Part shown: positions 36,240-55,902 of the stretch, in pieces
Layout: every line of letters starts with the position of its first letter
Numbering within the stretch: position 1 is the stretch's first letter
NCBI GenBank assembly: GCA_964448115.1
Contig: CAYUVA010000022.1
Coordinates: 1-62,858 of the forward strand
Length of the DNA stretch: 62,858 bases
Direction of reading: 5' to 3'
Source of the DNA: an uncultured bacterium
GTDB taxonomy: Bacteria > CAYUVA01
Notes under the pieces: model-generated
Database searches by the model: none
What the model was told of the DNA's origin: nothing
The model's input: the letters and a program-made list of their open reading frames with translations, nothing else
Translations under genes and position numbers: made by a program

Positions 36240-39200
36240 ATGTTGAAATTCCCTCTCCGAAGGAGCAATCAGACCATGATCTATAAAACAGCAGGTGGCT
36301 TCAATTTATTAAGATTATCTTTATTGCTAGTAATTCTTATCAGCTCCCTTGCCTATGGGATTACGGTCGGTGGTTACTGGGACACCAATATTGACAGCTT
36401 GGGCGGGAAGCTGAGCATCTTGTGCCTGGCAGATGAGGACTATAACAGGGTGGAGATACTCTACCAGGGCATACCGACCGGCGTCGAGCTTCCCCTGGCT
36501 GGCAGCGAAGGAGGCTTCAATACCTTTTTCTTCTCAGCTCCCATCGGCTCTCAACCGGAACCAGCGCTTTACCTGCTTGAGCTTCGTGCTTATGGCGAAG
36601 ATGGACTGATGAGCAGCACCTGGCCATACCTTAGCGCCAATACTGGAACTGGATACGCCATCTTTTATCATCAGGACGACTATGAGGCAGTGGCGCACAT
36701 CGCTGGCAGACTGGCAGAATACATAACGCAGATGTCCGGCGCTGAGGTCGAGCTTATAACCTTATCTAGCCTCTCCGATGAAAGCAGGCTGTGGAACTCG
36801 TTCGACAAGGCTGGCTTCGTGCTCAATCCTCAGGTGCTCTCCCCGCAGCTCTTCGGCGACTTCGTATCCGACCCGATGGACGAGGAGAGCTACAAGGTGG
36901 AATCGCTGCAACAAGGCTCCAGGCTGCTTTATCTCGTCGCTGGCGAGGGGAAACTGGGCATACAGTACGGTGTCTATGACTTCTTGCATGAGCTTGGTGT
37001 TCGCTTTTTCCACCCGGAGCAGGAATGGATACCGGATACGCTTGAGTTGCCACATCCGTTTAACATGGAGTCTCAACCCGCCTTCAAGTATCGCGGTTTC
37101 GGCATTCACACCACGCATCCGCTGGATATCATCGACCCCTTGAGCGATTCCAACATCTCGTTTTGCTACGCAGCTAACATAAACGACTGGCTGGTCAAGC
37201 TACATACCAATCAGGACGGTAAGGGAGCGGTGCGAGGGGTAGCGCCGGAACATCGCTACCAGCAGAGAGCACAACAGCTCAACGAGTACAACAGGATGCT
37301 TGGCTTCAGGCACGGAGCAGGCATCTCGCTGCATGGTTCACAGCAAGGAGGGAGACCTGATGTCGATTGGAACTCCGAGGTGCCACCGGAAGATCAAATC
37401 CGAGACCATATCGACAGAGACCTGGGCAATAATCCAGATAATGAGTGGTTCTGTATCAGCTATGGATACACGGAATATACGGCTGCCCCCTGCGATGAAA
37501 CGCTCTATTATATCCAGTTCGCAGGGCAGTATGTGCTCGACAACTACCCGCATGTGCTCCCCATAGTAAACAGCCATATAACCGGCGATCAGCCCTGCGC
37601 GGACTACAACCAGACCGATTTTTACGACCTGGGCATCTACACAGATCCCGATATAGGCATAAAGTGGCACACGGTAATGTTCTACGACCTGTTCGGTCCC
37701 GCTCCCTGCTATCGCCAGAGCACCTTCAACCATAAGTGGCGGTATATGCAGCAGGAGGCGCAAAGAGGGAGAAAGCAGATCTACTTTCCAGAGGGTGGCT
37801 ATTGGCTTTCATTCGATAATGCGATTCCGATGTTCTACCCGGTCTATCTATACACACGCTGGCTTGATATCCAGGCGGTCAAGGAGCTGATCCCGCGGGG
37901 GATGATAGGACACCGCCAGTTCACCACCGGCTGGGAGTGGGGCTACTGGATGCACGATTACATGGTAGGACAGTTGCACTGGAACCCGGATCTCAATTGG
38001 ACCGATGTGGTCGCCGACTGGACTATCGACATCATGGGCGATGCAGGAACAACCGTGCACCGCGTGCTGTGCAATATGGCTCGATATCAGTACCACACGC
38101 TAATTACGAAGCAGTTGACAAAGTACTTATCCGGCGAGGATGAGATCGATGAGATCGGTGCTGAGCTGGGCTTCCAGGCTCAGGAATTGCGTCCCTATTT
38201 CACCGAGATATATGCTTACAATAAACAGCAACTCTACGAATTCGTCGATGGAGACTTGAACCAGGTGTGGCTGATGTGCCAGCAGTATGGGAGATACCTG
38301 GCAGAGCTGGATGCGGTAGCAGATCAAGTGCCAGACAAGGCAGTTCCCTGGTTCCGGGAGATCTACGATGGAACGCAGATAAACTGGCTGCGATGCCGGC
38401 ATATATACCATCTCTACCAGGCAGTGGTGAAATACAGGCTCGATGAGCTGGATCCGATAGCCGAGGCGAGAGATTACATGGCAGACTACAACATGGCAGT
38501 CGCCATCACCGATGATGCATTGCAGGTCATCCATGGCCGTGAGCTGGACTATCGCTATCCGCTTGAGTGGAGCATAGGCGGCGGCTTGACCCCGGAGACC
38601 GAAGAGGAGAACGGCACCGTCTATAAATACCGGTATCTGCACAAGACGCACATCGGGCACTACTGGACGAGGCGCAATCACCTGGCTTACGAGGTGATAA
38701 CCGGGCAGGCAGATCCCTTTGCAGACAAGTTCTACCTCTATCCAGCAATCGCCTACGAGAGTGAGCCGCTCTATGTTCATTTCCCTGAATTCACTGGCTT
38801 GGAGGCTGACCTGAACTTCGGAGACGGCAGCACGGGAGATGAAACAACTCAAAGCCATGTTTATTCGGGCAAGGGCTTCTGGAAGGCGATCAGCAAGCTC
38901 ACATTGCCCGGCTTGCCCGAGCCGGAGCAAAGATACGAGGCATACATAGGCAGGGTTGGCATCCAAGCCTACGCCCCCAAGGGGAGCCTTAGCATCATCG
39001 ATCCAGAGATACCGATACTAGATATGATTATAAAAAGCGTTATCCCCGGAATGCACCTTGGGCTGGCTTTGGAGACCAAGAGCGAGATCCCGTTTTTTAT
39101 CATCGGGCTGGATCACAACCAGGATCGCTGCGCCGAGGACTTCACCACCACGCCGATGTTAGTAAAGCCTGAGTCGCTTCCTGGCTTTGAGACCGAGCCT

Positions 39201-39503
39201 ACCGATATGAACCTCACCTTCCAGTATGGCATCTCCGATACCTTCATCAACCTTTCCGGAAAGGAGTGGGTCTTTGCTGGCAGCATCACGGAAGGCGCGG
39301 TTGATACACCGGTAAATCTGCATGGTGGCTTGACCATCGAGAGTATCATCCTGGCGCTTATACAGGTCGGTGGAATGGACTACGAGGGGGCGCGGATACT
39401 TATCGCCAACCTTTTAGGCTACGAGCCTGAACAACTGCCGGATATTCTTTGGTTCACCGCATTACTGGAGGTTGAGGAACATTGTTTTACTCTACAGAAT
39501 TGA
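36240..39503 (+). CDS. Large secreted glycosidase-like protein: signal peptide, WPYL domain, GH67/GH20-N-like domain, putative TIM barrel, PKD-like domain
   Basis: Signal peptide ending SLAYG, then 'GEGKLGIQYGVYDFLHELGVRFFHP', 'PAFKYRG' and 'NFGDGST......HVY..KG' (PKD). Start may be ATG 36276. Confidence 0.7.
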   Translation: MLKFPLRRSNQTMIYKTAGGFNLLRLSLLLVILISSLAYGITVGGYWDTNIDSLGGKLSILCLADEDYNRVEILYQGIPTGVELPLAGSEGGFNTFFFSAPIGSQPEPALYLLELRAYGEDGLMSSTWPYLSANTGTGYAIFYHQDDYEAVAHIAGRLAEYITQMSGAEVELITLSSLSDESRLWNSFDKAGFVLNPQVLSPQLFGDFVSDPMDEESYKVESLQQGSRLLYLVAGEGKLGIQYGVYDFLHELGVRFFHPEQEWIPDTLELPHPFNMESQPAFKYRGFGIHTTHPLDIIDPLSDSNISFCYAANINDWLVKLHTNQDGKGAVRGVAPEHRYQQRAQQLNEYNRMLGFRHGAGISLHGSQQGGRPDVDWNSEVPPEDQIRDHIDRDLGNNPDNEWFCISYGYTEYTAAPCDETLYYIQFAGQYVLDNYPHVLPIVNSHITGDQPCADYNQTDFYDLGIYTDPDIGIKWHTVMFYDLFGPAPCYRQSTFNHKWRYMQQEAQRGRKQIYFPEGGYWLSFDNAIPMFYPVYLYTRWLDIQAVKELIPRGMIGHRQFTTGWEWGYWMHDYMVGQLHWNPDLNWTDVVADWTIDIMGDAGTTVHRVLCNMARYQYHTLITKQLTKYLSGEDEIDEIGAELGFQAQELRPYFTEIYAYNKQQLYEFVDGDLNQVWLMCQQYGRYLAELDAVADQVPDKAVPWFREIYDGTQINWLRCRHIYHLYQAVVKYRLDELDPIAEARDYMADYNMAVAITDDALQVIHGRELDYRYPLEWSIGGGLTPETEEENGTVYKYRYLHKTHIGHYWTRRNHLAYEVITGQADPFADKFYLYPAIAYESEPLYVHFPEFTGLEADLNFGDGSTGDETTQSHVYSGKGFWKAISKLTLPGLPEPEQRYEAYIGRVGIQAYAPKGSLSIIDPEIPILDMIIKSVIPGMHLGLALETKSEIPFFIIGLDHNQDRCAEDFTTTPMLVKPESLPGFETEPTDMNLTFQYGISDTFINLSGKEWVFAGSITEGAVDTPVNLHGGLTIESIILALIQVGGMDYEGARILIANLLGYEPEQLPDILWFTALLEVEEHCFTLQN

Positions 39504-39579
39504 GTTTAGAGTTAACGGGATTGCCAGATAATATATATGATAATACAAAAGGATATTATATATATTAATAAGGTAAAAA

Positions 39580-40011
39580 ATGCTCCGAAGAATTATTAAA
39601 AAACTATATTGTCGAGAGAAAAACCGTAAAAAGTTAATAGATACGGAATCTCAGTCAGCCCTGAACAAAATCTGGGCAACTGGAATGCAGGAAGAAATGC
39701 AGTTCTGGTACAACTGGTTCAAAGAAAAAGGGGGACAATGGAAAGTATCATATCTGAAAAGGTTAAATCCAGATGCTATTGTTGAGGGTCAACTAGCTAA
39801 CTATGTAAGACTAGCCCAAAATGAGGCGGAAAAAGAAGATTATCAAGGAACTCATCAATGGAACTTCTGTATTGATAACAATGAGTATATTATTTGGAAT
39901 AGATATATTCGAATTTCTATCGATGAGTTCTTCTCAAAAAAAGCAGCTACCGTTTATCTAGGTATGGATAATCAATATGAGGAGATCGTTGTGTTGCAAA
40001 AAATCGGATAG
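39580..40011 (+). pseudogene. AT-rich ORF resembling a methyltransferase with its core deleted
   Basis: N-part W..G...E..FW..W....GG.W...Y..RL.P joins directly to NEAEKEDYQGTHQWNF...IIWN. No SAM-binding motif I is present. Confidence 0.45.
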
Positions 40012-40069
40012 GGATTGTAGGGGTGGAGGTGATTTGAGGAAAACTAGATTAAAAATAATGCAATTAATA

Positions 40070-40099
40070 TTGACATCACTGCGATTGTCAGGTTAATAT
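40070..40099 (+). promoter_or_regulatory. Candidate promoter of the FadL-like gene with an overlapping TGACA-N10-TGTCA inverted repeat
   Basis: TTGACA at 40070, TAATAT at 40094 and inverted repeat at 40071-40090. Confidence 0.45.
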
Positions 40100-40229
40100 T
40101 TGTTCGATCATAAAGAAATCGTTAGCTGGTTGGCTAATGTGCTTCAGGCATTGATGGTCGCCAGGACGATTTGAGCTTGTTTGATTAGCATGATGAAGCT
40201 AACAAAACAACCAATATAGAGGAGGTATC

Positions 40230-41576
40230 ATGGCAAGAAGATCTTTTATGTGGGGAGCCATTATGGCTCTGATGTTCACGGTCATGGCTGGAAGCGCTTA
40301 TGCGGGCGGCTTCTATCTCCCCGAGATAGGCACCCGCTCGACCTCTTATGGGGTCGCATTCGTTGCCCGCTCCGATGACCTAACTGCAATTGTCCACAAC
40401 CCGGCTGGCATGACCCAGCTAAAAGGGTGGCACTTTACGCTGCAACCGCAGTACTGGATGACCTCAGCATCTTATGAGGGTGCACCAGAGGCTACCGGCT
40501 ATCCGGGTGGAACCCCAGGAGAGTGGGAGAAAGAGGAAGTCTCCGACAGCACTTTTGTACCCTTTGCCGGGCTTTCCTATGGCATGGACAAGGTAACCGT
40601 CGGGTTGGGGATCTATCCTCGCTACGGGCTGATGAGCGAATGGCCAGATGATGGCTTCCAGCGCTTTACAGTGGTTGAGATCGGCTTCCGGACCATCTTC
40701 ATCTCACCATCGGTCGCCTACGAGGTCGCCAAGGGGCTATCCATCGGCGCTACCTTCAGCTATGTGATGCTCGATGGAAAGATCAAGAAGATGAAATACC
40801 TATTGGTAAAAGAAGACATGTTCGAGCTTACCGGGGATGGCTCTGCAATGACCATGCAACTGGGAACCCGATACGAGATGGACAAGATGACCTTCGGATT
40901 GTCCTACCAGTTCCCTACCGAGATTACCCTTGAGGGTGATGCTGAGCTGGATGGCTTGAATGACCCCACCATACAGGCGATTACCGGCAAGTACTACACC
41001 GGGATCGATACCGGCGAGCTGGATCTATCGCTTCCTGGCATCCTGGCTGTCGGATTCATGTACAACCTGACCGATGAGCTTTCCTTGGAGCTTGATGTCA
41101 ACTGGATCCAGAACTCCATTTTCCGTGAATATACGGTTGACTTTGCCGGCGACGAAGAGGATCGAGGAGAAGAGGCTACCGAGGATAATCCAGCTACCTT
41201 CCCCAAGGATACCACCCTCAAGAAGAGGTGGAAGGACTCTTATGCGATCAGGCTCGGCGGACAATATGAATTCAGCAATAAGCTCTGCTTCCGCGGCGGC
41301 GTCCTGTTCGATAAGTCCCCCATCCCAGACGATAGGCTTGATGCCACAACAATCGATACCGACAAGGTTGGAATAGGGCTTGGCTTGGGGCAAAAGCTGG
41401 GAGAAAGAATGACCATCGATTACGCATACATGCACATCTTCTACTCTGAGGGCGAGGTTACCGACAGCGCATATCCAGAGGATACAGCCGAGGAGACAGT
41501 GCCTGATCAATCGACCAACGGCAAGTACAACCACGCCGTGGACATGTTCTCCATTGCTCTTACCTATCATTTTTAG
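40230..41576 (+). CDS. OmpP1/FadL family outer-membrane long-chain fatty acid/hydrophobic compound transporter
   Basis: Signal peptide AYA-GGF, AFVARSDD..AIVHNPAG, WKDSYAIRLG, DKSPIPD and C-terminal YHF. RBS GAGGAGGT. Confidence 0.9.
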   Translation: MARRSFMWGAIMALMFTVMAGSAYAGGFYLPEIGTRSTSYGVAFVARSDDLTAIVHNPAGMTQLKGWHFTLQPQYWMTSASYEGAPEATGYPGGTPGEWEKEEVSDSTFVPFAGLSYGMDKVTVGLGIYPRYGLMSEWPDDGFQRFTVVEIGFRTIFISPSVAYEVAKGLSIGATFSYVMLDGKIKKMKYLLVKEDMFELTGDGSAMTMQLGTRYEMDKMTFGLSYQFPTEITLEGDAELDGLNDPTIQAITGKYYTGIDTGELDLSLPGILAVGFMYNLTDELSLELDVNWIQNSIFREYTVDFAGDEEDRGEEATEDNPATFPKDTTLKKRWKDSYAIRLGGQYEFSNKLCFRGGVLFDKSPIPDDRLDATTIDTDKVGIGLGLGQKLGERMTIDYAYMHIFYSEGEVTDSAYPEDTAEETVPDQSTNGKYNHAVDMFSIALTYHF

Positions 41577-41602
41577 GTAAGCTAAATAAGGACGAAAACA
41601 AC

Positions 41603-41644
41603 GGGCGAGGGAGAATGCGTACCAAATGCACCCCTCGCCCTTTT
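41603..41644 (+). terminator. Rho-independent terminator after the FadL-like gene
   Basis: GGGCGAGGG...CCCTCGCCC 9-bp stem followed by TTTT. Confidence 0.7.
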
Positions 41645-41654
41645 AATTAAGCAA

Positions 41655-43139
41655 TCACGGTCGCCTTCCTTCAATGTAATCTAATAGCGTCTCCTTGATC
41701 GTTTCATCAAGCCTAGAGAGGTGGTTATACTTCAATAAAAGGATATCATCCTGGAAAAACAAGACGCCGTAATTGCCTAATTCCAGGTCGGCATATAAGG
41801 ATCTATAAAAGTCGCCCTTGCGATACTCCTCGTAGGTCCATCTCGGATCGCTAAGATCGACCAGAATGTACTCTGGTTCAAGGCGCAGTGCGACACGGTG
41901 CTGGTAAACCTCGATATTTCGCCGACTGGAGAGGTGGGCTGCAAAGCTGTTGATTGCGGCTACTGAGCTATCAGGGGGGACCAGGCTGATGGCATTATTA
42001 GCAGCGTTTTGATTGTCTCTCGCCTGGAGCGGTTTTTCTCTCAAAGGGGAAATCATGCAAAATATAAAGCTCAATGTGGAACAAATAAATACTAGGATAA
42101 CAATTATTCTAACTGTGATTTGTTTTTTATTTTTCAGAAAGCAAATTATCGAATAATATAATAATACAACGCTTGGAGATAAATAATGTAGCTTAAAAAG
42201 AACAAATCCGCCCATATTAGATATGTACTGAATAAAAAGGTAGGGTAATATGATAATAAATGAACCGGAAAGCAATGGTATAAATATAACAGGGAAAAGA
42301 TAATACAACAGGTGGGTTAACTTATATGTATTTGTTGCCGAGATAACAGAGCGTAAAGGATGGGATGCTAATTCCTTAGTTACTGATCCGATATCATCTC
42401 CCAGGAACTGAAATCGATCGATATGAGAATATGGAGCGCCTCGAAAATATGGAATGATATATTCTGTGCTAATAAAGAGATATGTAATTGACAAGATTAT
42501 CAACAAAAATGATATAATTTTTATCTTCTTAAATATAAGCAAATATATTCCAAAGCCTAAAACGAACAACGACATATCTTCTTTAACAAGCAATAATACA
42601 ATAATAAAAATACAGCTTAATATATAATTATTTTTCTCCATAAAATATAATGCCAAAGCGATTAAAATAACAGCTAAACAGGACTCATGAAAATCATATA
42701 AAATGGCATATATTAGTGATGGATGAAATTAATATGCAGTTGCCAAAAGAATCGCAAGCATATTATTATCGAAGACCCTCAATCCGATCTTAAACAACAA
42801 GACGGCAGGTAAAGCCATTAAAAATACTTGGATAATAAGTAACATATCAGGTGCAGGAAAGATCATATATAATGGAAGTAATAATATCAACGCTAACGAG
42901 AAATGCTCCCCCAGGAAATTTTTGAATGGATAAAACGATGTATTAAAAAGTCTTCCCTGGCTGCTATTCCAGAAAATCTGGTTGAATACGCCGAGATCGT
43001 AGGCAGTTGTCTTGAAATTATGATGTTGTTCTATCGTTATTAAAGAAAAAAATATAAAATAAGTAAAAATTATGAGACTGAACATAAATTTATTCTGCCC
43101 TATATTCCCCAAAAACGAACTCATTTTATCATAAATCAT
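41655..43139 (-). pseudogene. DUF2079-like (GT-C-type) membrane protein interrupted by one in-frame TAA
   Basis: YDLGVFNQIFWN and FLGEHFS in the 5' ORF. TAA at 42731-42729 is followed in the same frame by FHPSLIYAILYDFHE...LLVKED. The two ORFs are exactly 24 codons apart. Confidence 0.8.
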
Positions 43140-43162
43140 GATTACTTAATGATTTAGGTTCA

Positions 43163-43243
43163 TTATGTATACTTACCTAGCGCATAAGCGAAGGATACAA
43201 TACATAATGAAATCATCATTGATATCGCCAACCATATCTTCAT
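43163..43243 (-). CDS. 26-aa hydrophobic small ORF MKIWLAISMMISLCIVSFAYALGKYT
   Basis: Strong AGGAGGT RBS 5 nt upstream of ATG 43243. Too short for the ORF track. Confidence 0.5.
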   Translation of the reverse strand: MKIWLAISMMISLCIVSFAYALGKYT

Positions 43244-43346
43244 AACATACCTCCTATCATAATTTCATAATAATTTTCAAAAGAGCTGATCAAACACTAT
43301 CAATTACTAACAGATCAACTAAACAGTTCCTTTGCCTCTGTATTGC

Positions 43347-43530
43347 TTATAGGGTATAAATCTGGATCATTTCTCCACCAATGGCAGACAACGATCCTGA
43401 ATTTGTACCCAGACTAACTGAGGTAGGAGCTGATAAAGCACCAGCCGGAAAGGTAATAGAAACTCCGCTAAGCTCGGAGTTTGGTGGTCCAGTGATGGTG
43501 CCACCATATAAAACGCTTGAAAAATAGTAA
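43347..43530 (-). pseudogene. Start-less fragment of a ZU5-like surface-protein domain
   Basis: Reads GGTITGPPNSELSGVSITFPAGALSAPTSVSLG, matching the GGTI...G..I..P.GAL pattern. No in-frame start. Confidence 0.45.
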
Positions 43531-43567
43531 TGTTTAGCATACCTTGAGGCATTGAATTTCTATCTAT

Positions 43568-45919
43568 ATGAACAAGGATAACCGCTCTAACATAGCCGCT
43601 TCATTAACCAGCCTGATCTTTCGCCATAGATGGTTGATCCTGCTGATCTACATCGGTGGTTTGGCGCTGGGTATCTACATACTCCCCGATGTCAGCGTAC
43701 AAAGCGCCATAGATGATATGATGATAGAGGGCGATCCTGCCCTGGAGTCATATCGCCGATTGCACGATATCTTCGGCAAGGATTCGCTTATCGTGGTGGC
43801 GCTCAAGCCGCCAAAGGTCTTCGAGGAATCCTTTCTGCATAAACTCCAGTCGGTTACCGAGCGCATCGAGCAGCTATCCCAGGTCAAGCGCGCCATCAGC
43901 CTGACAAACGCTCCCTCGGTTATTGCAACAGAAGATGAGATCACCGTGGGAGCGATAATGGAGCAGGTACCATCGAATGCCCAAGAGATGCAAGACTTCA
44001 GGAAGCGTGTCTTCGCGGCGGATTACCTGGTCGATACCATCATATCAAAGGATGCCACGGTTACCTCGATCAATATCCAGGCGATAATCGAAGGGGACGA
44101 GGATCGCCAGCGAAAAAAGCTGGTCTCTGATGTGATCGATATCGTAGAGTCCGGCTTCGGCGAGGATGTCGAGTATCATCTATCCGGCGATATAGTGCTA
44201 ATCCGCAAGGTATCCATGAGCATCTCCAGGAACCTGGTTACCTTCGCGCCCTTGGCAGTGTTTATTCTTTTTGTGATGCTCCTGGTCATCTTCAGGCAGT
44301 TTTATGGCGCATTGATGCCAGTGGTAACCTTTGTATCAGCCATAACTGGAACATTGACCCTGATCACCCTGAGCGGCAATAGCTTGAATATAATCACTAC
44401 TATCCTTCCTCCGCTGCTCCTGGTTATCGGCACCACCAATGTAGTCCATTTCCTGGCTCGCTACCAGGAGGAATACGACAGCTATCACGAGAAACAGGCT
44501 GCATTGCATAGTGCGCTGGAGCATGTCATGTTCCCTTGCTTCTTGGCTTCGTTTACCACCGCGGTTGGCTTTTCATCGCTTATAATAAGCGATATCAAGC
44601 CGATTCGGCAGTTCGGCTACTATAGCGCCTTTGGCATCATGCTAGCTTATGTTATCGCCATGACTGTAGTGCCGGTGGTGATGCAATGGTTCCCCAAGCC
44701 GAGGCTGACCTTTAAGGTGATAAAGAGAAGGACTATGATTAGCCGCCTGCTGGATGGGGTGTCTCGCCTTAATGCAAGATATTATTGGAAGATAGCAGCC
44801 ATGACCTTTTTCGTTGTAATCATAATGGCTTGGGGCATATACTTTCTCAAGGTGGAGACTAATTTTCTGTCCTATTATTACAAGAATGATCCCATCAAGA
44901 TAGCCTTTGATTTTATCGAGACACATTTGACGGGCACGGCAACCATCGATCTGATAATCGAGGCTCAGGAGGATGACATGGTGAAGGAGCCTCGGTTGCT
45001 CAAGGCTGCTGACCGTTACATGAAGCGCGCGGTTGAGGAGATCCCGGAGCTGGATAAGTTCTTCTCCATAATCGACCTCATCAAGCAAATGAACAAGGCG
45101 ATGCATGGGGATGATCCCGCATATTATCGCATCCCGGATACACGAGCCGAGGTGAGCCAGTACTTGCTTTTATATGAGACCTCCGGCGAGGATGTAGATC
45201 TCGGTTTTCTAGTCGATTACAGCTATCGGAGAATGCACATGCAGGGGAGGCTGCATAATTGTAGCTCCAGGCGAATGGAGCATATAGCGGATACTTTAAG
45301 AGCTTATGCCAGGCAATTAGAGGCTGAATTGCCTGGTATCGATATGGAGGTAACCGGCACTTCTGCGCTCTTCGCTGCCATGGCGAACAACCTGGTTTAT
45401 AGCCAGATAAAGACCTTCGGCTTGGCAATGGTGCTTATAATCATTGTGATGACCGTTATGACCAGATCGGTTAGCGTCGGGCTTCTGGCAATGGTCCCTA
45501 ACATCGTTCCCCTGGCAATAACCTTCGGTGCCATGGGGTACATAGGCATTGCGCTTAATACTGCGACCAGCATGATAGCGAGCATAGCAATAGGCATAGC
45601 GGTGGATGACACCATACACTATTTAGTCAGGCATCGCCGCGAGTATGCTAAATTGGGGGATCATCATAGGGCGATGGACAGGGCATTGCATACGGTGGGA
45701 CGGGCTATGACCTATACAACGCTGGTAGTCGCTATCGGGTTCTCGGTGGTTGTACTATCGGACTACAAGCCATTTTTATACTTTGGCACCTTGATGTGCC
45801 TGACAATGTTTTCGGCTTTGCTGGGGGATATAGTCATTTTGCCCGTGCTCATCCTTATCTTCAAGCCGAGATTCAAGGGCAATACAATTCATCACGCAGA
45901 TGACAGACCCTCACCCTAA
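43568..45919 (+). CDS. MMPL/RND family transporter
   Basis: Two repeats of 1+5 TM with large periplasmic loops, plus ASFTTAVGFSSL and IGIAVDDTIHY motifs. Confidence 0.9.
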   Translation: MNKDNRSNIAASLTSLIFRHRWLILLIYIGGLALGIYILPDVSVQSAIDDMMIEGDPALESYRRLHDIFGKDSLIVVALKPPKVFEESFLHKLQSVTERIEQLSQVKRAISLTNAPSVIATEDEITVGAIMEQVPSNAQEMQDFRKRVFAADYLVDTIISKDATVTSINIQAIIEGDEDRQRKKLVSDVIDIVESGFGEDVEYHLSGDIVLIRKVSMSISRNLVTFAPLAVFILFVMLLVIFRQFYGALMPVVTFVSAITGTLTLITLSGNSLNIITTILPPLLLVIGTTNVVHFLARYQEEYDSYHEKQAALHSALEHVMFPCFLASFTTAVGFSSLIISDIKPIRQFGYYSAFGIMLAYVIAMTVVPVVMQWFPKPRLTFKVIKRRTMISRLLDGVSRLNARYYWKIAAMTFFVVIIMAWGIYFLKVETNFLSYYYKNDPIKIAFDFIETHLTGTATIDLIIEAQEDDMVKEPRLLKAADRYMKRAVEEIPELDKFFSIIDLIKQMNKAMHGDDPAYYRIPDTRAEVSQYLLLYETSGEDVDLGFLVDYSYRRMHMQGRLHNCSSRRMEHIADTLRAYARQLEAELPGIDMEVTGTSALFAAMANNLVYSQIKTFGLAMVLIIIVMTVMTRSVSVGLLAMVPNIVPLAITFGAMGYIGIALNTATSMIASIAIGIAVDDTIHYLVRHRREYAKLGDHHRAMDRALHTVGRAMTYTTLVVAIGFSVVVLSDYKPFLYFGTLMCLTMFSALLGDIVILPVLILIFKPRFKGNTIHHADDRPSP

Positions 45920-46063
45920 CCATCTCCCAGGGGAGTCTGTCTGAAAAAAAGACCAAAAATAGATTTGACAAGAAATAAAAAAATAATAAATTTATCATAA
46001 ATATGATGCCCCAAAGAGAAAGGAAAAGCAAATTCGTAAAAAAGTTCGATAAAACACCCCCTT

Positions 46064-47461: not shown

Positions 47462-47472
47462 CTCAATCGAAA

Positions 47473-49164
47473 TCAAGGCTCTACATTTATATACGGCCAG
47501 AGATATCCATGACTCCCGGTCGGTGTATAGGGAAGCAGCTCTAGCAGGTATTCGCCGGGCGAAATCCCAGGCTCGATCCTGGCACCGAAGCCGTAGATTC
47601 CATCTCCGGCTGAATAATCGAAGTGCTCGCCATCATCATAAAGAAACACGCCGACTCCCTGAGCAAAGTAAAATATCTCCAGCGCCTCGATCCCCTCAGA
47701 CATAGCAGCGCCTAACATTACCAGGTAGCCGCCGTTCCGAGAGCTTATTATCGTATTACCGTACCCGGCAAGTTCTACCTTCAGGATTGGCGTTGGAGTA
47801 AGGGATGGATATGCGGTTTGGGTTGGTGTCGGAGTATGGGTATTGTATTCCGCCGGCGTGTTTGTGGGCGTAGGCGTTGGAGTTGGCGATGCCGTGTAAG
47901 TCGGGGTGCAAGTAGGATAAGATGGCGTATTCGTGGGAGTGGGAGTGCTAGTCGGAGTATAAGTAGGAACTGGCGTCGGCAAACCACTTTTGATTATCGT
48001 AAAATAATCGATGATATCTCCGGTTGGCACCCGCACAGCCTCGAACTCTAGTATCCCGAAAGGGCTTATGGAAAACCGACAATAATGGTAGGTCGCCTCG
48101 CGATGACAAGACCAATCGGGTTGATCCTCCCATTGTGGGTACAAGAGCCTCCCGCCGCCCCCGGAGACACAATATATAGTTCCCTGGGGATCCTCGTATT
48201 CATGCGTTTCGGTCGAGGTTACCTCTTCGTTATAGATCGGATAACTTCTCTCGTAAGCATGTTGATGACCATTCAATACGAAATCGACTCCATACTGGTC
48301 GAAAAGATGGCAAAATGCAGCCCGCACGCTCATGCTAGAAGGGTGTTTGCTCCCAGAGCAGTAGGGTTGCTTGTGGAAATAAGCGAATATCCAGTGGACA
48401 TCAGGATCTGAGGAGGCAGCCTCCAGGTCATCTTGCAGCCAGTTATATTGATCGGAGCCAATACTGTAATCCTCGCAGTGGGTATCCAATGATATGAAGT
48501 GTACCTGCCCCCAGTCGAAGCTGTAGTACCTCTCGTTTCCCGGCAACGCAAAGCGACCGAAGTAGCTGCTGAATTCAGGATCATCTTCCTCATGATTGCC
48601 TAATCCAGGAAAGGTTATCGACTTGGAAAATAGCTGATCAAAGAGGTTGAACCAACTATCCCAGACCGGTTGAATATTTGTGCTGCAAGCCAGATCCCCG
48701 GCGAGACAGGTAAAAGGTGGGTCCTCCAGGGCGGTCATCTCTGCTGTATATCTCGCCATGTTATATACGCCGGTATCGCTGAACATGCAGAATTCCAAGA
48801 ATTTCGCTCTATCTGGCGCAGTGATGAAAGAATGTTCTTCGCTCCATTTGCCCTGTTGACCACAGCGGAAAAAATATCGCGTATCCGCAGCGAGAGCTTC
48901 CAGCCGTACAAAACTGATATATCCGCTGAACCAGTTGGGTGTGCTTATCGATTCGCCGGTAGCAGTGTAGGGGTAGTAATTCGGAAAAGTACCGAACTTG
49001 ACCATGGGCACCGATGGCTCCTGGTCGGTCTTGAAGCTAATAGTAACTGTCTGCGAGGGATCGCCCTCGGTTGTGATGTAGATGTGTTCGATAGTAAGGC
49101 TAAAAGATGCACAAACTTGGAGGCTTAACAGGACTATGACCAATGATGTCAGCCTGGTGTTCAC
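47473..49164 (-). CDS. Secreted purple acid phosphatase family metallophosphoesterase with a Pro/Thr linker and C-terminal WPYL domain
   Basis: Signal peptide, FN3-like PAP N-domain, SDTG, GDL, GNHE, FHK and GHQHAYER motifs. About 60-aa PT linker. Confidence 0.88.
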   Translation of the reverse strand: MNTRLTSLVIVLLSLQVCASFSLTIEHIYITTEGDPSQTVTISFKTDQEPSVPMVKFGTFPNYYPYTATGESISTPNWFSGYISFVRLEALAADTRYFFRCGQQGKWSEEHSFITAPDRAKFLEFCMFSDTGVYNMARYTAEMTALEDPPFTCLAGDLACSTNIQPVWDSWFNLFDQLFSKSITFPGLGNHEEDDPEFSSYFGRFALPGNERYYSFDWGQVHFISLDTHCEDYSIGSDQYNWLQDDLEAASSDPDVHWIFAYFHKQPYCSGSKHPSSMSVRAAFCHLFDQYGVDFVLNGHQHAYERSYPIYNEEVTSTETHEYEDPQGTIYCVSGGGGRLLYPQWEDQPDWSCHREATYHYCRFSISPFGILEFEAVRVPTGDIIDYFTIIKSGLPTPVPTYTPTSTPTPTNTPSYPTCTPTYTASPTPTPTPTNTPAEYNTHTPTPTQTAYPSLTPTPILKVELAGYGNTIISSRNGGYLVMLGAAMSEGIEALEIFYFAQGVGVFLYDDGEHFDYSAGDGIYGFGARIEPGISPGEYLLELLPYTPTGSHGYLWPYINVEP

Positions 49165-49241
49165 TGCTTATTTGGTGATTACCAAAAAACCTAAGAATTT
49201 TCAAATCCAAATTCTCATGTTAGCCGGGATACCCTCCAACC

Positions 49242-49530
49242 TGTCATTCCGAGCGATTGAGCCTAAGTGAGCGAGTCGAGGAATCTCCCCCTATATTCCC
49301 CCTAAGTTTGGGAGTTTGTCTCAAAGTTTCCCAACATGTCATTACGAGGAGTCCCGGCAAGTCGGGACCGCGAAGCAATCTTCTTTATAATCGAATAGGC
49401 TCCATCTCTAATTCAAACATTACAACAATATACGCTATATGAGGCTATAATTTTTATCGCCACCAGGTCCCTCCATATCATTCCCGCATTTCCCTCTGCT
49501 GTCATTCCCGCCCTGCATCAAGGGCGGGGC
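49242..49530. repeat. Cluster of TGTCAT-initiated REP-like palindromic elements
   Basis: TGTCATTCCGAGCG..GAGGAATCTC (49242), TGTCATTACGAGGAGTCCCG..CGGGAC..CGAAGCAATC (49337), TATCATTCCCGC (49476) and TGTCATTCCCGCCCT..AGGGCGGG (49500). Confidence 0.7.
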
Positions 49531-49599
49531 AAACGCCGAAAGACCTTTATTTCGGAATTTTCAACAAGCAACTGGCATAAGGCAGAAACAAGTAAATTA

Positions 49600-50274
49600 T
49601 TATATCGGCTTGATTAGCGGCTGGTAGAGCTTCACCTTCTTGCCAACCTTGATAAGCATCTCCGCTGAATCGGGTGGAAAGATCAACAGCACCGTGGAGC
49701 CGATCAGAAACCTGCCCAGGATATCCCCCTGCGAGTAGCTCTCGCCAACCTGGTAATTTCGCTCTATGGCATTGACCGCGAAGGAGCCGATCATCGCGAT
49801 CAGCATGTTAAAGCCAAAGCGCGTTTTGTACTCGGTGGTCAATCTTTCATTCTTTATGTCAGCAGATCTGTAGAATATGACCGGCAAAGCGCTTCCCGGC
49901 GAATGAAGACTCCCTACCACTTCGCCGTTACAGGGGAAAATTACATAATGCAAATCCAATGGCGATAGGTACATCTTGGCGTAAAATCCCCCCAGATAAC
50001 GCTCGGCTACATCATGGTGCTTGACCAGCTCGCCGACGGTCAGGTAGCGCTTCCTGCCCCACAGCGACTTGTCCTCCACCAGCCCTGATGGCGAGATATG
50101 CTTTACGGATTGCAAGCGGGATTCGCATGGGGATACCAGAATATCAGGGTATTCCTTGATCTCTGGATTGTGATACTTCCTGAAGGTATGCCGAGGGCGC
50201 GAGAACCATTTATTAAGCTTCAGGCGATCGGCAGCATATTTCAAGTCAAAAAAGTTGAAGACTCCCATGATCAT
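49600..50274 (-). CDS. psd: Phosphatidylserine decarboxylase proenzyme
   Basis: WFSR, VSPCES, YLSPLDLH and the self-cleavage motif GRFLIGSTVLLIF. Confidence 0.85.
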   Translation of the reverse strand: MIMGVFNFFDLKYAADRLKLNKWFSRPRHTFRKYHNPEIKEYPDILVSPCESRLQSVKHISPSGLVEDKSLWGRKRYLTVGELVKHHDVAERYLGGFYAKMYLSPLDLHYVIFPCNGEVVGSLHSPGSALPVIFYRSADIKNERLTTEYKTRFGFNMLIAMIGSFAVNAIERNYQVGESYSQGDILGRFLIGSTVLLIFPPDSAEMLIKVGKKVKLYQPLIKPI

Positions 50275-51032
50275 TCCTTTTCCTTCAGGGAATATTTGGC
50301 ATAGGGTGGCGGGTATTCACGATTATAAAACTCCTTGAAAGGGATATGCCAGGAGATAAGACTAGGATTCTTCTCATCGGCTGTGCCGTTGGTGGAAATT
50401 ATCTTGCCTGGGAAGGTTACCCTGATAGTTATCTGTGTATTGGCGAGCCTTTCAATGGTCTTTTTATCTATATTAGCTTCCACGCTGGTCTGGATGCGTT
50501 CCTGATTTGTCTTTGCAGGTTGCTCTCCCTTTCTTTCAATCCTTATGGCAGTTTCAGCTTCACCATCAGATGTCTTTTTCTGAGCAACATCAGTCGGCTT
50601 GGACGATCCTGGTTGTTCGGTTTGCTCAGGCTTGGCTTTCCTTTCAGGTTTTTGTGGCTTTTTTATCTCTCCGGAGCCTCTATATGGATTGAAGAAGATC
50701 TTGAATTCCCTGGTATTTTCGTCCAGCTCCTTCAGGGTAGCAAAATGACCGAAAAGCTTGAATTTACTGATATCACTGACCTCAGTCTCGACCTTGAGAT
50801 ATACATGCTCTCCCTCTTCTTTAATTGCTGACTTGGTTACCCTGGATACCTCGCTTTGATATTCCATGATATGTTTCTGGATGCCAGCATGGTTAGCTTT
50901 GCCCAGCCTGGTAACAGAGGTCATCTTACAGGAATTGTCATCGTTCAAGACTATATCTATCTCATAGCAGCCATACATACTGACCACGATCATCAAAAGG
51001 ATGACTGTGAATGCTGTTTTGTATCTCTTCAT
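50271..51032 (-). CDS. Putative lipoprotein with an LppM-like domain and a low-complexity insert
   Basis: Lipobox MYGC, then 'IVLNDDNS' and 'VTFPGKIISTNG.......ISW'. Confidence 0.6.
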   Translation of the reverse strand: MKRYKTAFTVILLMIVVSMYGCYEIDIVLNDDNSCKMTSVTRLGKANHAGIQKHIMEYQSEVSRVTKSAIKEEGEHVYLKVETEVSDISKFKLFGHFATLKELDENTREFKIFFNPYRGSGEIKKPQKPERKAKPEQTEQPGSSKPTDVAQKKTSDGEAETAIRIERKGEQPAKTNQERIQTSVEANIDKKTIERLANTQITIRVTFPGKIISTNGTADEKNPSLISWHIPFKEFYNREYPPPYAKYSLKEKE

Positions 51033-51207
51033 CGGTGTTTCTCCTTTGTTTTTAGATCCATCAAAATCATAAAATATTGAACAAGCCTATAAATGTCAAT
51101 TGAGAAGGGGCGTGGGATTATGGTATGCATGGTTCTGTTAGGACAAGTTAAGCCTTTAAAAATATTTCTGTTTTCAGTTGCCAACAGTGTCATATTGACT
51201 CATTGTC

Positions 51208-51236
51208 TTGACATGAGGGTAGCATGAAACTAGTAT
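51208..51236 (+). promoter_or_regulatory. Candidate sigma70 promoter of the giant surface-protein gene
   Basis: TTGACA, 17-nt spacer, TAGTAT. Confidence 0.5.
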
Positions 51237-51273
51237 TAATAAAGAATAATCGGTTATTAAGCGGATTTATCTG

Positions 51274-54200
51274 ATGAAAAGACCTAAGCAGCCTAGCTCA
51301 ATCTTCCTGTTACTCACCTTTTGTGTTTTGATAACGCCAGTAAGTAGCAGCCATTCAACCACCTATCACAACAGCGATATAACCAGCAGCGAGACCTGGT
51401 ACAGGTCGGGCAATCCGCATATCGTTACCGCGGATATCTCGGTGGTCAACATCCTAGGCATCACCTTGACCATCGAAGCCGGCTGCGATGTCCAGTTTAC
51501 CGTAGCCAGCAGCCTCACCGTCGATGATAATTGCAAGCTGAGGGCTTATGGTACCGAAAGCGCGCCGATCCGCTTCACCTCCAACAATTCCAACCCGCAG
51601 CCGGGGGACTGGGAGGGGATCTATCACAACTGGAGCGATGCTGACGGAAACTACACATACTGTATCTTCGAGTATGCGGGTAATAACGCTGCTGCGCTAA
51701 ATGCTGAGGATGGCGCTGCAATATATATGCGCAACTGCGAGATACGATATTGCTGGAATACGAACCTGAGTCGTGGGGGGATGATCTATATAGCCAACAA
51801 CTCCACGCTAAGCATCCAGTGGTCTTCCATACATGACAATGCAGTGCAGTCAGCCCCTGGCGGAGCAATCTATACCTGGGCTTCTCAGACTACGGTAACC
51901 AATTGCGATATCTATAAGAATCGAGTGCGCAATAACTCTGGAGGCGCAATCTTTGTTGAAAATTGTAGCCCGACTATCACCGATTGCCGTATCTTCGACA
52001 ACAACTGCACAGAGGTAGGGGGAGGTATTCATCTGAAGGCGGATACATCGCCATGGACTGCCTTTTCTCCAACAATAAAAGACAATATCATCTATAGGAA
52101 CTACTCGATTGGAAATGGCGGAGGCATTTATATCGATGGCAACTTCAGCGCTGTTTTGTTGAGAGTAACCATAGCGGAGAATAAAAGCGATGGCAATGGC
52201 GGGGGAATTGCATACTACGGAAGCCGCTGGAACCGCATCCATATAAATGATTGCACCATCTTCGCCAATAACCCTCAAGGGATCTACCAAGCGCCGGAGA
52301 GCATAAATATATATTACACGAATGTGATCAGCCAGGCAGGTTACGGCATCAGGGGACACCCCAACAGCATCCGGGAGAGCAATCTATACAATAATACGAC
52401 CTACGAGGTCTATGCTGACAACCCGCCCAGCGTGGATGCGCAGTACAACTACTGGGGCACTAGCGATGCAGGTACCATCTCGGGCAGAACCAACAATGTC
52501 AACTACGACAACTATTATTCGACCGCTCGCCATCAGCCGCCTCCCCCACCGCCGATCAACCTTTATCCTGACTGTCGCCACGAGAAGGTGGTGCTTTCCT
52601 GGGACAAGGTGAGCGCCAGCGATATCCTCGGATACTATGTTTACTACGATACGATGACGCCGGGGATATTCTATCCCACTTATGATGGTAATGATTCTCT
52701 TCAGGGTATCTCACCGCGCGATGCTGGTGATGTGGGCAAGTATTCGCTGACCGGCTTGACCAATGGGAGGATGTATCGCCTGGCGGTCAGGGCTTACGAC
52801 TCCTCTGAGACCGGCTGGTACTCCGAGGAGGTAACCGCGGTGCCGGTAACCTCCACGCCGACTGCCACGCCGAGCATGACTCCGAGCAGCACTCCTAGCT
52901 CCACGCCGACCAGCTCCCCATCATCAACTCCATCGAGCACTCCGAGCAGCACCCCGACCGATACAGCTACCTACACCCCGTCATCAACTCCCTCAAGCAC
53001 TCCGACATCGACCTCAACAGAAACGCCGACATCGACCCCTTCAAACACTCCTAGCCGTACACCGACCTCGACCAGCACACCGACCGAGATTCCGACCTCA
53101 ACTCCGACCGCAACCTCCACCCACAGCCCGACCGATACAGCAACACTGACTCCCACCGTAACATCGACCTTCACACCGACAATGACGCCGAGCAACACTC
53201 CGAGCAGCACGCCGACAAGTACCTTGACCCTTACACCCAGCTCGACACCGAGCCAGACGCCGACCCTAACGCCGACGGTAACCGATACGCCGACCCATTC
53301 TCCTACCGGGACGCCGACAACAACACCAAGCAGTACCTCCAGCTCAACACCCAGCTCGACGCCGACAGCGACGGTTAGCAGCACCCCGACTGCGACCGAG
53401 ACCGCCACCCCGACCTATACATCCACCGCTATACCGACCTCCACGCCCAGCTTAACGCCAACATCGACTCCATCAGCGACCCCGACCCAGACAGTTACCG
53501 ATACCCCCTCGCAGACGCCGACCAACACAGCGACCACCATCCCGACTGAAACCCCGACCCTGACGCCGACGGCGACCAGCACTCCAACCAGCACTCCGAC
53601 GGCGACCCATACTGGTATGCCGAGCACCACTCCAACTTCCACGCCGAGCATCACCCCTAGCCTTACCCCGAGCGCTACGCCCACCGATACCTCGACCTCG
53701 CTTCCCAGCGCCACACCGACCGCTACCGCAAGCGCAACTCCGACCAGCACATCAACACCGACCATGCTACCAACCGCTACTCCCAGTGCGACCGTAACCG
53801 GCACCCCCTCATCGACTCCAAGCGCCACGCCAAGCGCCACGCCGAGCACAACACCGACCTATACCGCAACCTCGACGGCGACGCCGAGCATGACCCCTTC
53901 CAGCACGCCATCAGGCACCCCAACCGAGACGCCCTCCTCAACACCGACACTAACACCTAGCGCTACCTTTACCGCCATACCGACCAGCACTGCCACAGAG
54001 ATCCCCACCTCAACCCCTAGCGACACGCCCACTGCTACGCCAACAGCGACCGAGACGGCAACGCCGACCTCTACTGCAACCGGTACGCCGACCGCCACAG
54101 GCACCGGCATGCCATCCTGGACGCCGAGCAACACCCCGTCTCTTACCCCGACTGCTACGCCATCGACAACGCCGACCGTGATAGCAAGCGCCACCCCGAC

Positions 54201-55902
54201 CTTGACGCCGACCAACACAGCTACGCCGAGCTGGACACCAAGCCAGACACCAACCAACACAGCTACCGATGTTCCTAGTACTACTCCCACAGCTACCGAA
54301 ACGCTAACGCCGAGCCTTACGCCGACGCTGACCTTGACCCCAACCGACACACCCACGCTGACGCCAACCACGACTGCGAGCACAACCCCGACTGGCACAG
54401 CGACCGCAACCACCATTCCGACCACGACTCCGAGCGCATCGCCAACCAGTACAGCCACCTATTCACCAACCAGCACCCCTTCGGGGACTCCCAGCCTGAC
54501 GCCAAGCAATACTCCCACCGATCTGCCCAGCATGACCCCTACCCAAAGCCCGACCAGCACTGCTACTCCGACCAGCACCCTTACTCAAAGCCCGACTACA
54601 ACTCCATCTGCAACCCCGAGCACCACGCCAACCAACACAATAACCAGGACTCCCAGCCGAACGCCGAGCCATACTCCAACCCTTACTTGTACATTCACGC
54701 CCACCATATCCCCCATCCCCTCCAGCACTCCGACCAACACGATGACGCTATATCCGACCCGCACCGAGACGCAGACGCCGACCCTGACGCCGACCATAAC
54801 CTCGACTCCCACCAACACGCCATCGACAACGCCTACCGATACAGCGACCGCCTCGCCGACCATGCTGCCAACATCTACTCCCACCGCCACTATGACCCCA
54901 TGCAGCGAGGTCGATATCTTCGAGCCTGATGATACCTGGGAACAGGCAAAGGATATCTTCTGCGATCAGGCTTTGCAGAGGCGCTATTTCTGCTACGAGG
55001 GTGATATCGACTGGGTGCGCTTCGAGGTCAGCCTGCACGCCACTTATGCCATCCGTTCCCTCAACCTTGGCTTGCTGGTCGATACATACTTCGAGCTATA
55101 TGACAGCAATCAGACAATGATAGCCAGCAACGATGATTACGATGTTAATTCAAGCGCATCGATGATCTCGCTGGAGGCAGTTGTCGAGTATCCCTCACCA
55201 TGGCGACTTCGTATAATAGAGGATAGCGACCCGCCTCTATGGGGACCGGGTGCCTTGTATGACTTGCAGCTCGTCTGCCTGACCGCCACCCCGACAGCAA
55301 CGCCTAGCCTAACCCCGACAATGACACCAAGCCCGACCTTCACCCCATCAAATACCCCCTCGCAGACAACGACCCCTACCATGACCCCATCGGTAACCGA
55401 TACGCCAACTATCAAACCGACCAGGACCCCGACCAAGACGCCAACCCCGACAGAAACGCCGATCCCAAGCTCAACGCCTACCATAACACCAACACCATCG
55501 GATACGCCGACCGTATCGCCGACCCCATCGCCTACCCCAACCCAAAGCGCAACCAGCACTCCATCACCTACCCCGACCCTGACGCCGGACGAGGTGCCTC
55601 GTTTCTCGGCAGGTGGCTACATGGATACTCGTTTAAGCAGCGCTGCTGGGGGCAATCTGAACATGCTGGCACTCACCTTAGCGCCAAAGTATGGAGTCAA
55701 GACTGTTGAGCTATACTTCATGGGCGAGCCAGTCGGTTTGTTTATGGACTACGGCGGACTATCGTTGAACATGCAGGTCTGGAATTTGTTTATCACGGTT
55801 GGAGGAGGAGCTGCGCCGGGAACATACCCGCTGGAGTTGATGGCGACCAACAGGCTTGGCACAGAGGGATTGCTCTGGCCTTACCTCAATGTAACCGAGT
55901 AA
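51274..55902 (+). CDS. 1542-aa secreted surface protein: right-handed beta-helix (GGAI/GGGI repeats), FN3, about 680-aa Thr/Ser/Pro stalk, PPC-like domain, second PT linker, C-terminal WPYL domain
   Basis: Signal peptide, Pmp-like GGxI repeats, FN3 (VVLSW...GYYVYY...LTGLTNG..Y.LAVRAYD), TPxx repeats and PPC-like [29 protein letters not shown]. Confidence 0.88.
52849..54900 (+). repeat. Coding low-complexity (TPxx)n mucin-like repeat
   Basis: About 2 kb of 12-nt/4-aa periodicity, strongly C/A-rich on the + strand, with diversified codons. Confidence 0.95.

Follow-up and report, generated by a model that had tools for sequence, protein, structure and literature searches.

Dockerins are small modules found behind Pro/Thr linkers on many unrelated secreted enzymes, mostly at the C-terminus and sometimes internally, at the N-terminus or in duplicate, and they consist of a helical EF-hand pair, i.e. 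a duplicated calcium-binding helix-loop-helix. In enzymes with carbohydrate-binding modules (CBMs) the classic layout is a catalytic domain, a Pro/Thr linker and a terminal beta-sandwich of ~100 residues, and tandem, internal and N-terminal CBMs are common. The C-terminal domains (CTDs) of type IX secretion system (T9SS) cargo are Ig-like beta-sandwiches of similar size at the end of many mutually unrelated exported proteins, among them C25 and S8 peptidases. The term choice-of-anchor designates domains located upstream of alternative C-terminal anchors or sorting signals. Here, a domain shared by three secreted proteins of an uncultured bacterium was analysed and compared with these systems. 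It is called the WPYL domain after a motif near its end, and its three copies are encoded within 20 kb of a DNA stretch of 62,858 nucleotides (the window), which is contig CAYUVA010000022.1 (C22) of assembly GCA_964448115.1 (3.98 Mb, 86 contigs, 94.45% complete, 48% G+C).

The WPYL segment is an autonomously folding, acidic Ig-like domain of ~100 residues, which constitutes a lineage-specific subfamily of the choice-of-anchor X type. Tentatively, and with a chance that we put somewhat below even, it is regarded as a shared, position-tolerant tethering or binding module of the exoproteome. The three window copies had been described in a first-pass annotation made from the sequence alone; their positions and strands agreed with the translations, from which the identical spacing PxxYxLEL-x6-G-x5-WPY[LI] was read directly in copies 1, 2 and 3. 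The segments are homologous, with pairwise BLASTP E-values of 6e-15 (copy 2 versus copy 3) and 4e-10 (copy 1 versus copy 3), ~30% pairwise identity and 20 invariant columns in the three-way alignment. Copy 1 scored E 5.2e-41 against the three-sequence profile, of which it is itself a part, and E 5.3e-25 in the profile search of genomes. An acidic DDG...GDG loop is retained in copy 2, and this central loop is degenerate in copies 1 and 3.

The placement of copies 2 and 3 at the extreme C-terminus of a purple acid phosphatase and of a beta-helix protein, in each case behind a Pro/Thr linker, proved correct. Both copies form the last ~100 residues after linkers rich in Pro, Thr and Ser (P/T/S), the 563-aa carrier of copy 2 matched Pur_ac_phosph_N (E 2.3e-16), Metallophos (3.7e-11) and Metallophos_C (3.9e-4), and the 1542-aa carrier of copy 3 matched Beta_helix (Table 1). 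A small Cys-containing domain of ~110 residues lies between the ~700-residue stalk and the second linker of the latter protein. The 1087-aa carrier of copy 1 begins with a basic stretch, a hydrophobic run and a small-residue motif within residues 1-40. Its description as glycosidase-like was not borne out: the cargo part gave sub-threshold Pfam matches only, to PKD and to DUF4838 (E 0.0061, 16.2 bits against a cut-off of 26.6), and no sequence relative of the protein was found in the PDB.

The first-pass annotation had further anticipated a lineage-expanded module with many more copies genome-wide, mostly terminal, nearly confined to signal-peptide proteins and restricted in taxonomic range, and all of this was recovered in the searches described below. 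A profile built from the three window copies alone gave at least 150 matches in this genome (150 of 214 candidates scored), far above chance. For the census, iterated hmmsearch was run to convergence over 7,742 stop-to-stop open reading frames (ORFs) of at least 80 aa, which yielded 198 domains in 160 ORFs, 124 of them with one copy, 35 with two and one with four. The WPYL family is the largest paralogous family of the genome; with the domain masked, the next largest families have ~40-55 members and consist of TPR proteins and of a family of ~480-residue proteins. The latter comprises ~43 members; C1:70107-71561 and C12:10751-11926 are examples from these next largest families. The carrier ORFs account for 453,402 bases (11.4% of the genome) and for ~5.5% of the ~2,928 non-overlapping ORFs. 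Since this corresponds to one carrier per 24.8 kb, the three genes within 20 kb reflect the density of the genome and are not a cluster. WPYL genes are dispersed, with 10 adjacent pairs versus ~9 expected, and no gene family was enriched within three genes of them (best uncorrected p 0.066). Dispersal without an enriched neighbour is what is expected for the cargo of a shared system encoded elsewhere.

A strong preference for the protein end was observed, as 141 of the 160 ORFs end no more than 15 residues past a copy. Among the 198 copies, 110 are single and C-terminal, 31 are the last members of C-terminal tandems and 57 are non-terminal, namely the 31 penultimate members of these tandems, 12 internal copies of other multi-copy proteins, 9 single internal copies and 5 N-terminal copies, including copy 1 of the window. 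An export signal that works from the C-terminus alone is hard to square with these 57 copies. When all 198 copies were placed in one tree, 19 of the 31 last copies had another last copy as nearest neighbour and 16 of the 31 penultimate copies another penultimate copy, while the own tandem partner was the nearest neighbour of only one of the 62 tandem copies; the tandem pairs behave as an old two-domain cassette. A WPYL-like motif is present in 161 of the 198 copies and is located just 2-5 residues before the stop codon in 103. It is kept in 29 of the 31 penultimate copies, which identifies the motif as the last strand of the fold rather than as a terminal signal.

The consensus of ~104 residues starts with a GY(M/W)DT first strand, continues with a GG turn, the acidic loop DDG..GD..AGDG.Y and a hairpin LLEL.A.D..GN.S, and closes with the final WPYL.[VI] strand. 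The copies carry a mean net charge of -8.3, which makes the domain acidic, and 94 of the 198 are preceded by 30 residues with at least 50% P/T/S. Judged by conservation in the alignment, the invariant GY..T, GG and PYL positions are candidates for a functional site. A signal-peptide-like N-terminus was assigned to 143 of the 151 5'-complete carriers versus 561 of the 1,622 other ORFs of at least 300 aa; as the heuristic is crude and lenient, it is the contrast that counts here and not the absolute rate. A lipobox-like motif was detected in only five of the 151 carriers.

In order to survey the cargo, Pfam was run on a random sample of 52 of the 151 complete carriers. Peptidase_S8 was found in seven, Big_7 in five, Peptidase_C25 (with propeptide) and Peptidase_C14 in two each and M14 in one, along with several propellers, FG-GAP, Big, DUF1565, fn3 and PLD; the cargo is diverse and typically extracellular. 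Among the carriers that do not end in the domain, one (C1:74029-76473, - strand) has a tandem WPYL pair followed by a 70-residue tail with a hydrophobic helix and a basic end, which by its sequence looks like a C-terminal membrane anchor. In five others the WPYL domain is followed by a basic, amphipathic-looking stretch and a short Pro/Asn-rich end motif (~PPxPSNPxPxDGATxVxPN, then stop). The end motif was seen on six proteins (C53:14193-17885, C29:36661-38718, C25:34153-37008, C16:63855-66227, C1:76596-78365 and C61:14109-15872), with three different stop codons and without a frame continuing downstream, and it may represent a second short C-terminal signal.

The structure of copy 3 was predicted by AlphaFold2 with an alignment of 30 paralogues (pLDDT 91.7, pTM 0.82) as eight strands, all-beta and without a helix. 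Foldseek against the PDB gave no match at E<=1e-3; the best one was the C-terminal Ig-like domain of sulfite dehydrogenase (E 1.9e-3, TM 0.56), followed by amylase N-domains, beta-2-microglobulin and fn3 modules. VIA-align against 48,161 chains returned a flat list at Z 7-8, with a best Z of 8.1, that included an amylase N-domain, xanthanase, sulfite dehydrogenase, LILR Ig domains, CBM21 (7.2) and the PorU C-terminal region (7.0). According to the model, the fold is a generic Ig/E-set-type beta-sandwich and nothing more specific. A PDB sequence search with the WPYL profile gave nothing below E 0.1. Mo-co_dimer, present in two of the 52 cargo proteins, was considered as an echo of the sulfite dehydrogenase matches and rejected, because its sole site in the genome scan is in the cargo part of a 985-aa protein. 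A homodimer prediction of copy 3 with the same alignment scored 0.27 versus a mark of 0.42 and is not evidence either way.

Pfam contained no significant match to the three segments or to 30 paralogues. Weak similarity was limited to Big_7 in three of the 30 paralogues (best E 0.0071) and to Big_3_2, Big_3_4 and Big_13 in one each, none of them above the gathering threshold. Dockerin, SLH, FlgD-Ig and CBM families were absent from the Pfam scans (segments and carriers at E<=1, 30 paralogues at E<=0.1). The T9SS tails TIGR04183 and PF18962 were found neither in the segments nor in the carriers, and in a profile-profile comparison with hhalign the 30-paralogue profile reached a probability of 0.2% (E 0.33) against 16 T9SS CTDs from 10 genomes. 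The initial view that the domain is not a T9SS CTD, dockerin, SLH or FlgD-Ig module therefore agrees with the hidden Markov model (HMM) searches. Its further characterization as unrecognised held only in part: no Pfam model covers the domain, but the central loop of many copies corresponds to NCBIfam NF041940 (choice-of-anchor X), and some distant relatives are so named by NCBI.

NF041940 is a model of 37 positions with a cut-off of 25 bits and spans about one third of the WPYL domain. At E<=0.1 it matched the central acidic loop in 19 of 30 paralogues, and in the whole genome it matched 48 places at E<=1e-4, 47 of them over the cut-off. Copy 2 scored 24.9 bits as a segment and 25.7 bits in the genome scan (C22:47590-47643), and no match was obtained in copies 1 and 3. 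Elsewhere the model is widespread and sparse, with 1-6 matches in 12 of 40 genomes of other phyla. At four such loci the WPYL profile aligned at positions ~42-96 only, the GYxDT and WPYL strands being missing. In three giant proteins of other lineages (P0038, P0093 and P0127; 1,907-4,692 aa), the central part of the domain is matched partially 6-11 times in tandem. One giant protein with eight such partial repeats, from a Promethearchaeota metagenome-assembled genome (MAG), is named 'choice-of-anchor X domain-containing protein' by NCBI, so that the broader choice-of-anchor X type reaches the archaea.

The likeness to choice-of-anchor X consists of the acidic strand-loop-strand DDG..GD..AGDG.Y in the same local context in unrelated phyla. 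The differences are that more than half of the WPYL copies have no match to the model, that 48 matches occur here versus 1-6 elsewhere, and that no further anchor follows the WPYL domain in 141 of 160 proteins. The partial match, combined with the lineage-specific GYxDT and WPYL strands, marks the WPYL domain as a distinct, expanded subfamily of a catalogued, uncharacterised domain type. No account of the WPYL domain was found in the published literature, and the phrase 'choice-of-anchor X' was found in none of the papers searched.

Among the genomes compared, the one studied here is the sole representative of its phylum. In 40 other genomes, the nearest kin available, all of which belong only to the same taxonomic domain, WPYL matches were restricted to one genome, G022, with 21 matches. 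A search of contigs from other genomes with a four-row alignment, this genome left out, gave no relatives. In CSSED10-310, the phylum of G022, 11 of 14 genomes contained 4-49 matches at E<=1e-8, and the three genomes without the domain are 87-96% complete. This rare, predicted Gram-negative phylum is sister to Acidobacteriota, and the paper describing it makes no mention of the domain (PMC8248873). A profile search of 1.84 billion cluster representatives retrieved 1,105 proteins at E<=1e-3, 576 at <=1e-10 and 168 at <=1e-30. Of 159 relatives inspected, 31 came from this genome, and 98 of the 128 others end in the domain; due to the fact that scores add up, the list is biased to two-copy proteins. 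Full-length relatives were found only in this genome and in the 11 CSSED10-310 genomes. TMEM260-like (PF11028) GT-C glycosyltransferases, which are numerous in CSSED10-310 (up to 14 matches per genome), were considered as a linked function and rejected: they occur in 12 of the 14 genomes, including two of the three without WPYL, so that there is no co-occurrence.

In 10 of the 11 WPYL-positive CSSED10-310 genomes the best profile match was located in a small frame of 171-264 codons, and an orthologue of 186 aa is encoded in the genome studied here (C4:99847-100407), with 33-44% overall identity to the CSSED10-310 proteins. The protein consists of a signal peptide, a variable stretch of ~60 residues in which a single Trp is invariant, and one WPYL domain that is very well conserved, a layout confirmed in an alignment of 46 stand-alone proteins. 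In a search of 5.8 billion proteins, 52 small proteins of this kind reached E<=1e-10; they are either unnamed or 'hypothetical' and lack Pfam domains. In the ESM Atlas the protein fell into unnamed clusters only (best score 0.92). By AlphaFold2 its Ig domain was predicted confidently and the N-terminal 70 residues with low confidence (pLDDT <50 over residues 18-36, 45-49 and 51-68), so that these residues offer no clue to an intramolecular ligand. A protein that is little more than the tag makes little sense for a pure export signal.

In CSSED10-310 the stand-alone gene has a conserved housekeeping synteny, which the locus of the present genome does not share. Its neighbours there encode a FabF-type ketoacyl synthase, SelA, Mfd/TRCF, a peptidyl-prolyl isomerase (PPIase), a GAF-HD protein and two proteins without a Pfam match; the ketoacyl synthase and an unknown gene are on one side and the Mfd/PPIase block is on the other. 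A conserved partner beside the stand-alone gene was sought and rejected, as the neighbours are housekeeping genes apart from the two without a Pfam match, and just one gene ~7 kb away, in two of eight loci, is shared with the locus of the present genome.

Of the explanations considered, a binding or tethering module accounts best for these observations. The carriers would be exported by Sec via ordinary non-lipoprotein signal peptides and would cross the outer membrane by a general route, probably a secretin-based system. The domain, usually placed at the protein end on a Pro/Thr-rich stalk that would be flexible and is probably glycosylated, would then act as a position-tolerant binding module and tie many unrelated exoenzymes and adhesin-like proteins (proteases, phosphatases, beta-helices and propellers) to one common ligand, either surface-bound or part of the extracellular matrix. 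Its function would be closer to that of a dockerin, SLH or cell-wall-binding module than to that of a cleavable export tag. The likeness to dockerins lies in the pattern of positions and in the Pro/Thr linkers on many unrelated secreted proteins; unlike dockerins, the WPYL domain is all-beta and has no Pfam dockerin match, no cohesin-like scaffold was identified, and the host is diderm. A binding module is preferred over a pure export tag because of the 57 non-terminal copies, the tandem cassette, the stand-alone protein and the internal arrays of the broader family.

Regarding the outer-membrane step, six secretin-domain genes were found in the ~4-Mb genome, many for that size (C1:34975-35454, C1:64168-64668, C40:16550-17065, C15:33634-34113, C14:67854-68366 and C6:67058-67525), and it may be through these secretins that the large exoproteome crosses the outer membrane. 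Together with the FadL-type barrel encoded in the window, they indicate an outer membrane and several systems of the type II secretion or type IV pilus type. The window FadL/TodX gene itself is context only, in that the organism has an outer membrane, without a shown link to the WPYL domain.

Several points weigh against the binding module. No ligand, receptor or scaffold was identified, and in this genome there is no conserved neighbour gene. The generic fold matches of Foldseek and the flat VIA-align list leave the structure silent on binding. The loose acidic-loop pattern was found in only 80 of the 198 copies, and in the window copy 2 alone retains the loop; with over half of the family lacking it, this possible calcium-binding loop cannot provide the functional site shared by all members. 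Moreover, the C-terminal bias and the gingipain-type and subtilase cargo also fit a T9SS-like sorting signal. The envelope tether or dedicated translocon proposed in the first-pass annotation can only be inferred; no partner, translocon or enriched neighbour gene was found.

This last fit leads to an alternative that we consider rather unlikely, namely that the domain serves, in analogy to the T9SS CTD, as the tag by which a so far undescribed pathway of outer-membrane secretion and/or attachment recognises its cargo, which would then be translocated and possibly processed and attached. The C-terminal position in 141 of 160 proteins and the short distance of 2-5 residues past WPYL in 103 copies are in line with it, as is the likeness to T9SS cargo sets in family size and content (Peptidase_C25 with propeptide, subtilases and beta-helices). 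Like T9SS cargo, the carriers are encoded by dispersed genes and have Sec signal peptides, and the sampled T9SS genomes carry up to 57 tails. The T9SS CTD is also an Ig-like sandwich, and the C-terminal domain of PorU appeared at Z 7.0, though in a flat list. T9SS tails were present in 11 of the 40 other genomes sampled (1-57 each) and absent from this whole genome at E<=0.01 and from G022, the only two with WPYL; in these 41 genomes, a small sample, the distributions of WPYL and T9SS tails are complementary. A tag, however, is hard to reconcile with the copies in penultimate, internal and N-terminal positions, including tandems, and with a conserved protein that consists of little beyond the domain. 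No relation to T9SS CTDs was apparent from HMM or profile searches, and no partner gene is enriched beside the cargo genes. Nor was candidate machinery found: SprA (TIGR04189) had no match in this genome, although the control genomes were silent as well, PorV (NF033710) reached 16.8 bits against a cut-off of 250, with PorU, PorK, PorL, PorM and PorN not searched, and no sortase was found. One partial match to the exosortase family was present.

That the domain is a CBM-like unit, which aims enzymes at an external polymer substrate or particle instead of the own cell surface, is likewise improbable. The carriers share the CBM layout, also in that some copies are in tandem, inside the protein or at its N-terminus, a binding protein that stands alone would be plausible, and the flat VIA-align list contains starch-binding and E-set amylase N-domains (Z 8.1 and 7.7) besides CBM21 (Z 7.2). 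The cargo, however, consists mainly of proteases, phosphatases, propellers and adhesin-like proteins and not of glycoside hydrolases, the domain is very acidic and has no Pfam CBM match, and 160 carriers, 5.5% of the ORFs, are far above what is usual for a substrate-targeting module. A passive structural unit (a spacer or an aid to folding and stability) without a specific partner and spread by domain shuffling would agree with the generic Ig-like fold, with the location of the most conserved positions in the first and last strands, which could simply be core, with the weak Big_7 similarity and with the arrays of distant relatives in giant proteins, but it is very unlikely. Spacers are normally internal and repeated, whereas in 110 of the 160 carriers here the only copy forms the very end of the protein and follows a linker by which spacing is already provided. 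The stand-alone orthologue, moreover, has been kept across two phyla, and a genome that devotes 11.4% of its bases to proteins with the same end module has probably been selected for a function which these share.

The coordinates of the window features are compiled in Table 1. In addition, a gene for a DUF2079 membrane protein at 41655-43139 (- strand) seems to be split into two ORFs, of which 42729-43139 spans positions 2-102 of the DUF2079 profile and 41655-42656 positions 129-457; this could be due to a frameshift, a pseudogene or an assembly error.

Table 1. WPYL copies, carrier genes and further features in the window
Feature	Position	Strand	Basis
Gene of 1087-aa secreted protein, domain N-terminal	36240..39503	+	ORF and translation
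Signal-peptide-like N-terminus of 1087-aa protein, residues 1-40	36240..36359	+	Translation
WPYL copy 1, residues 40-133 of 1087-aa protein, directly after signal peptide	36360-36640 as segment, 36360..36641 as domain	+	Translation, profile
Gene of FadL/TodX-type outer-membrane beta-barrel	40230..41576	+	Toluene_X 8.8e-53
WPYL copy 2, extreme C-terminus, residues 462-561 of 563	47473-47790 as segment, 47476..47790 as domain	-	Translation, profile
Gene of 563-aa secreted purple-acid-phosphatase-type metallophosphoesterase, domain at end	47473..49164	-	Pfam
Pro/Thr/Ser-rich linker between phosphatase and domain, residues 385-461	47782..48012	-	Sliding window, P/T/S >=60%
Gene of 1542-aa secreted right-handed beta-helix protein, domain at end	51274..55902	+	Beta_helix 1.4e-14
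P/T/S-rich stalk of ~700 residues, residues 510-1215 of beta-helix protein	52801..54918	+	P/T/S content
Second P/T/S-rich linker, residues 1330-1449, directly 5' of domain	55261..55620	+	P/T/S content
WPYL copy 3, extreme C-terminus, residues 1442-1540 of 1542	55597-55902 as segment, 55597..55899 as domain	+	Translation, profile

How diderms outside the well-studied phyla export large sets of enzymes and keep them at the surface is largely unknown. In the organism studied here one end module is found on ~160 exported proteins, in a genome without T9SS tails or sortase and with few lipoprotein signals among the carriers, and this clean, very large cargo set together with a single conserved stand-alone protein provides a handle for finding the receptor or the machinery. 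In current databases the carriers go by 'hypothetical' or, if their loop fits the model, by 'choice-of-anchor X domain-containing protein'. With an HMM that covers the whole domain, annotation pipelines could spot the exoproteome of these uncultured lineages. More speculatively, and in our opinion not probable, WPYL might serve as the address label of a so far undescribed system for surface sorting or attachment in two rare diderm phyla that apparently lack T9SS, with ~5% of the genes as cargo and the stand-alone protein as a core component, for example as surface-bound docking partner or as shuttle. Should the domain prove to be a sorting tag, a novel route of secretion or attachment would be indicated; if it is a docking module, it would represent a diderm, all-beta counterpart of the cohesin-dockerin principle.

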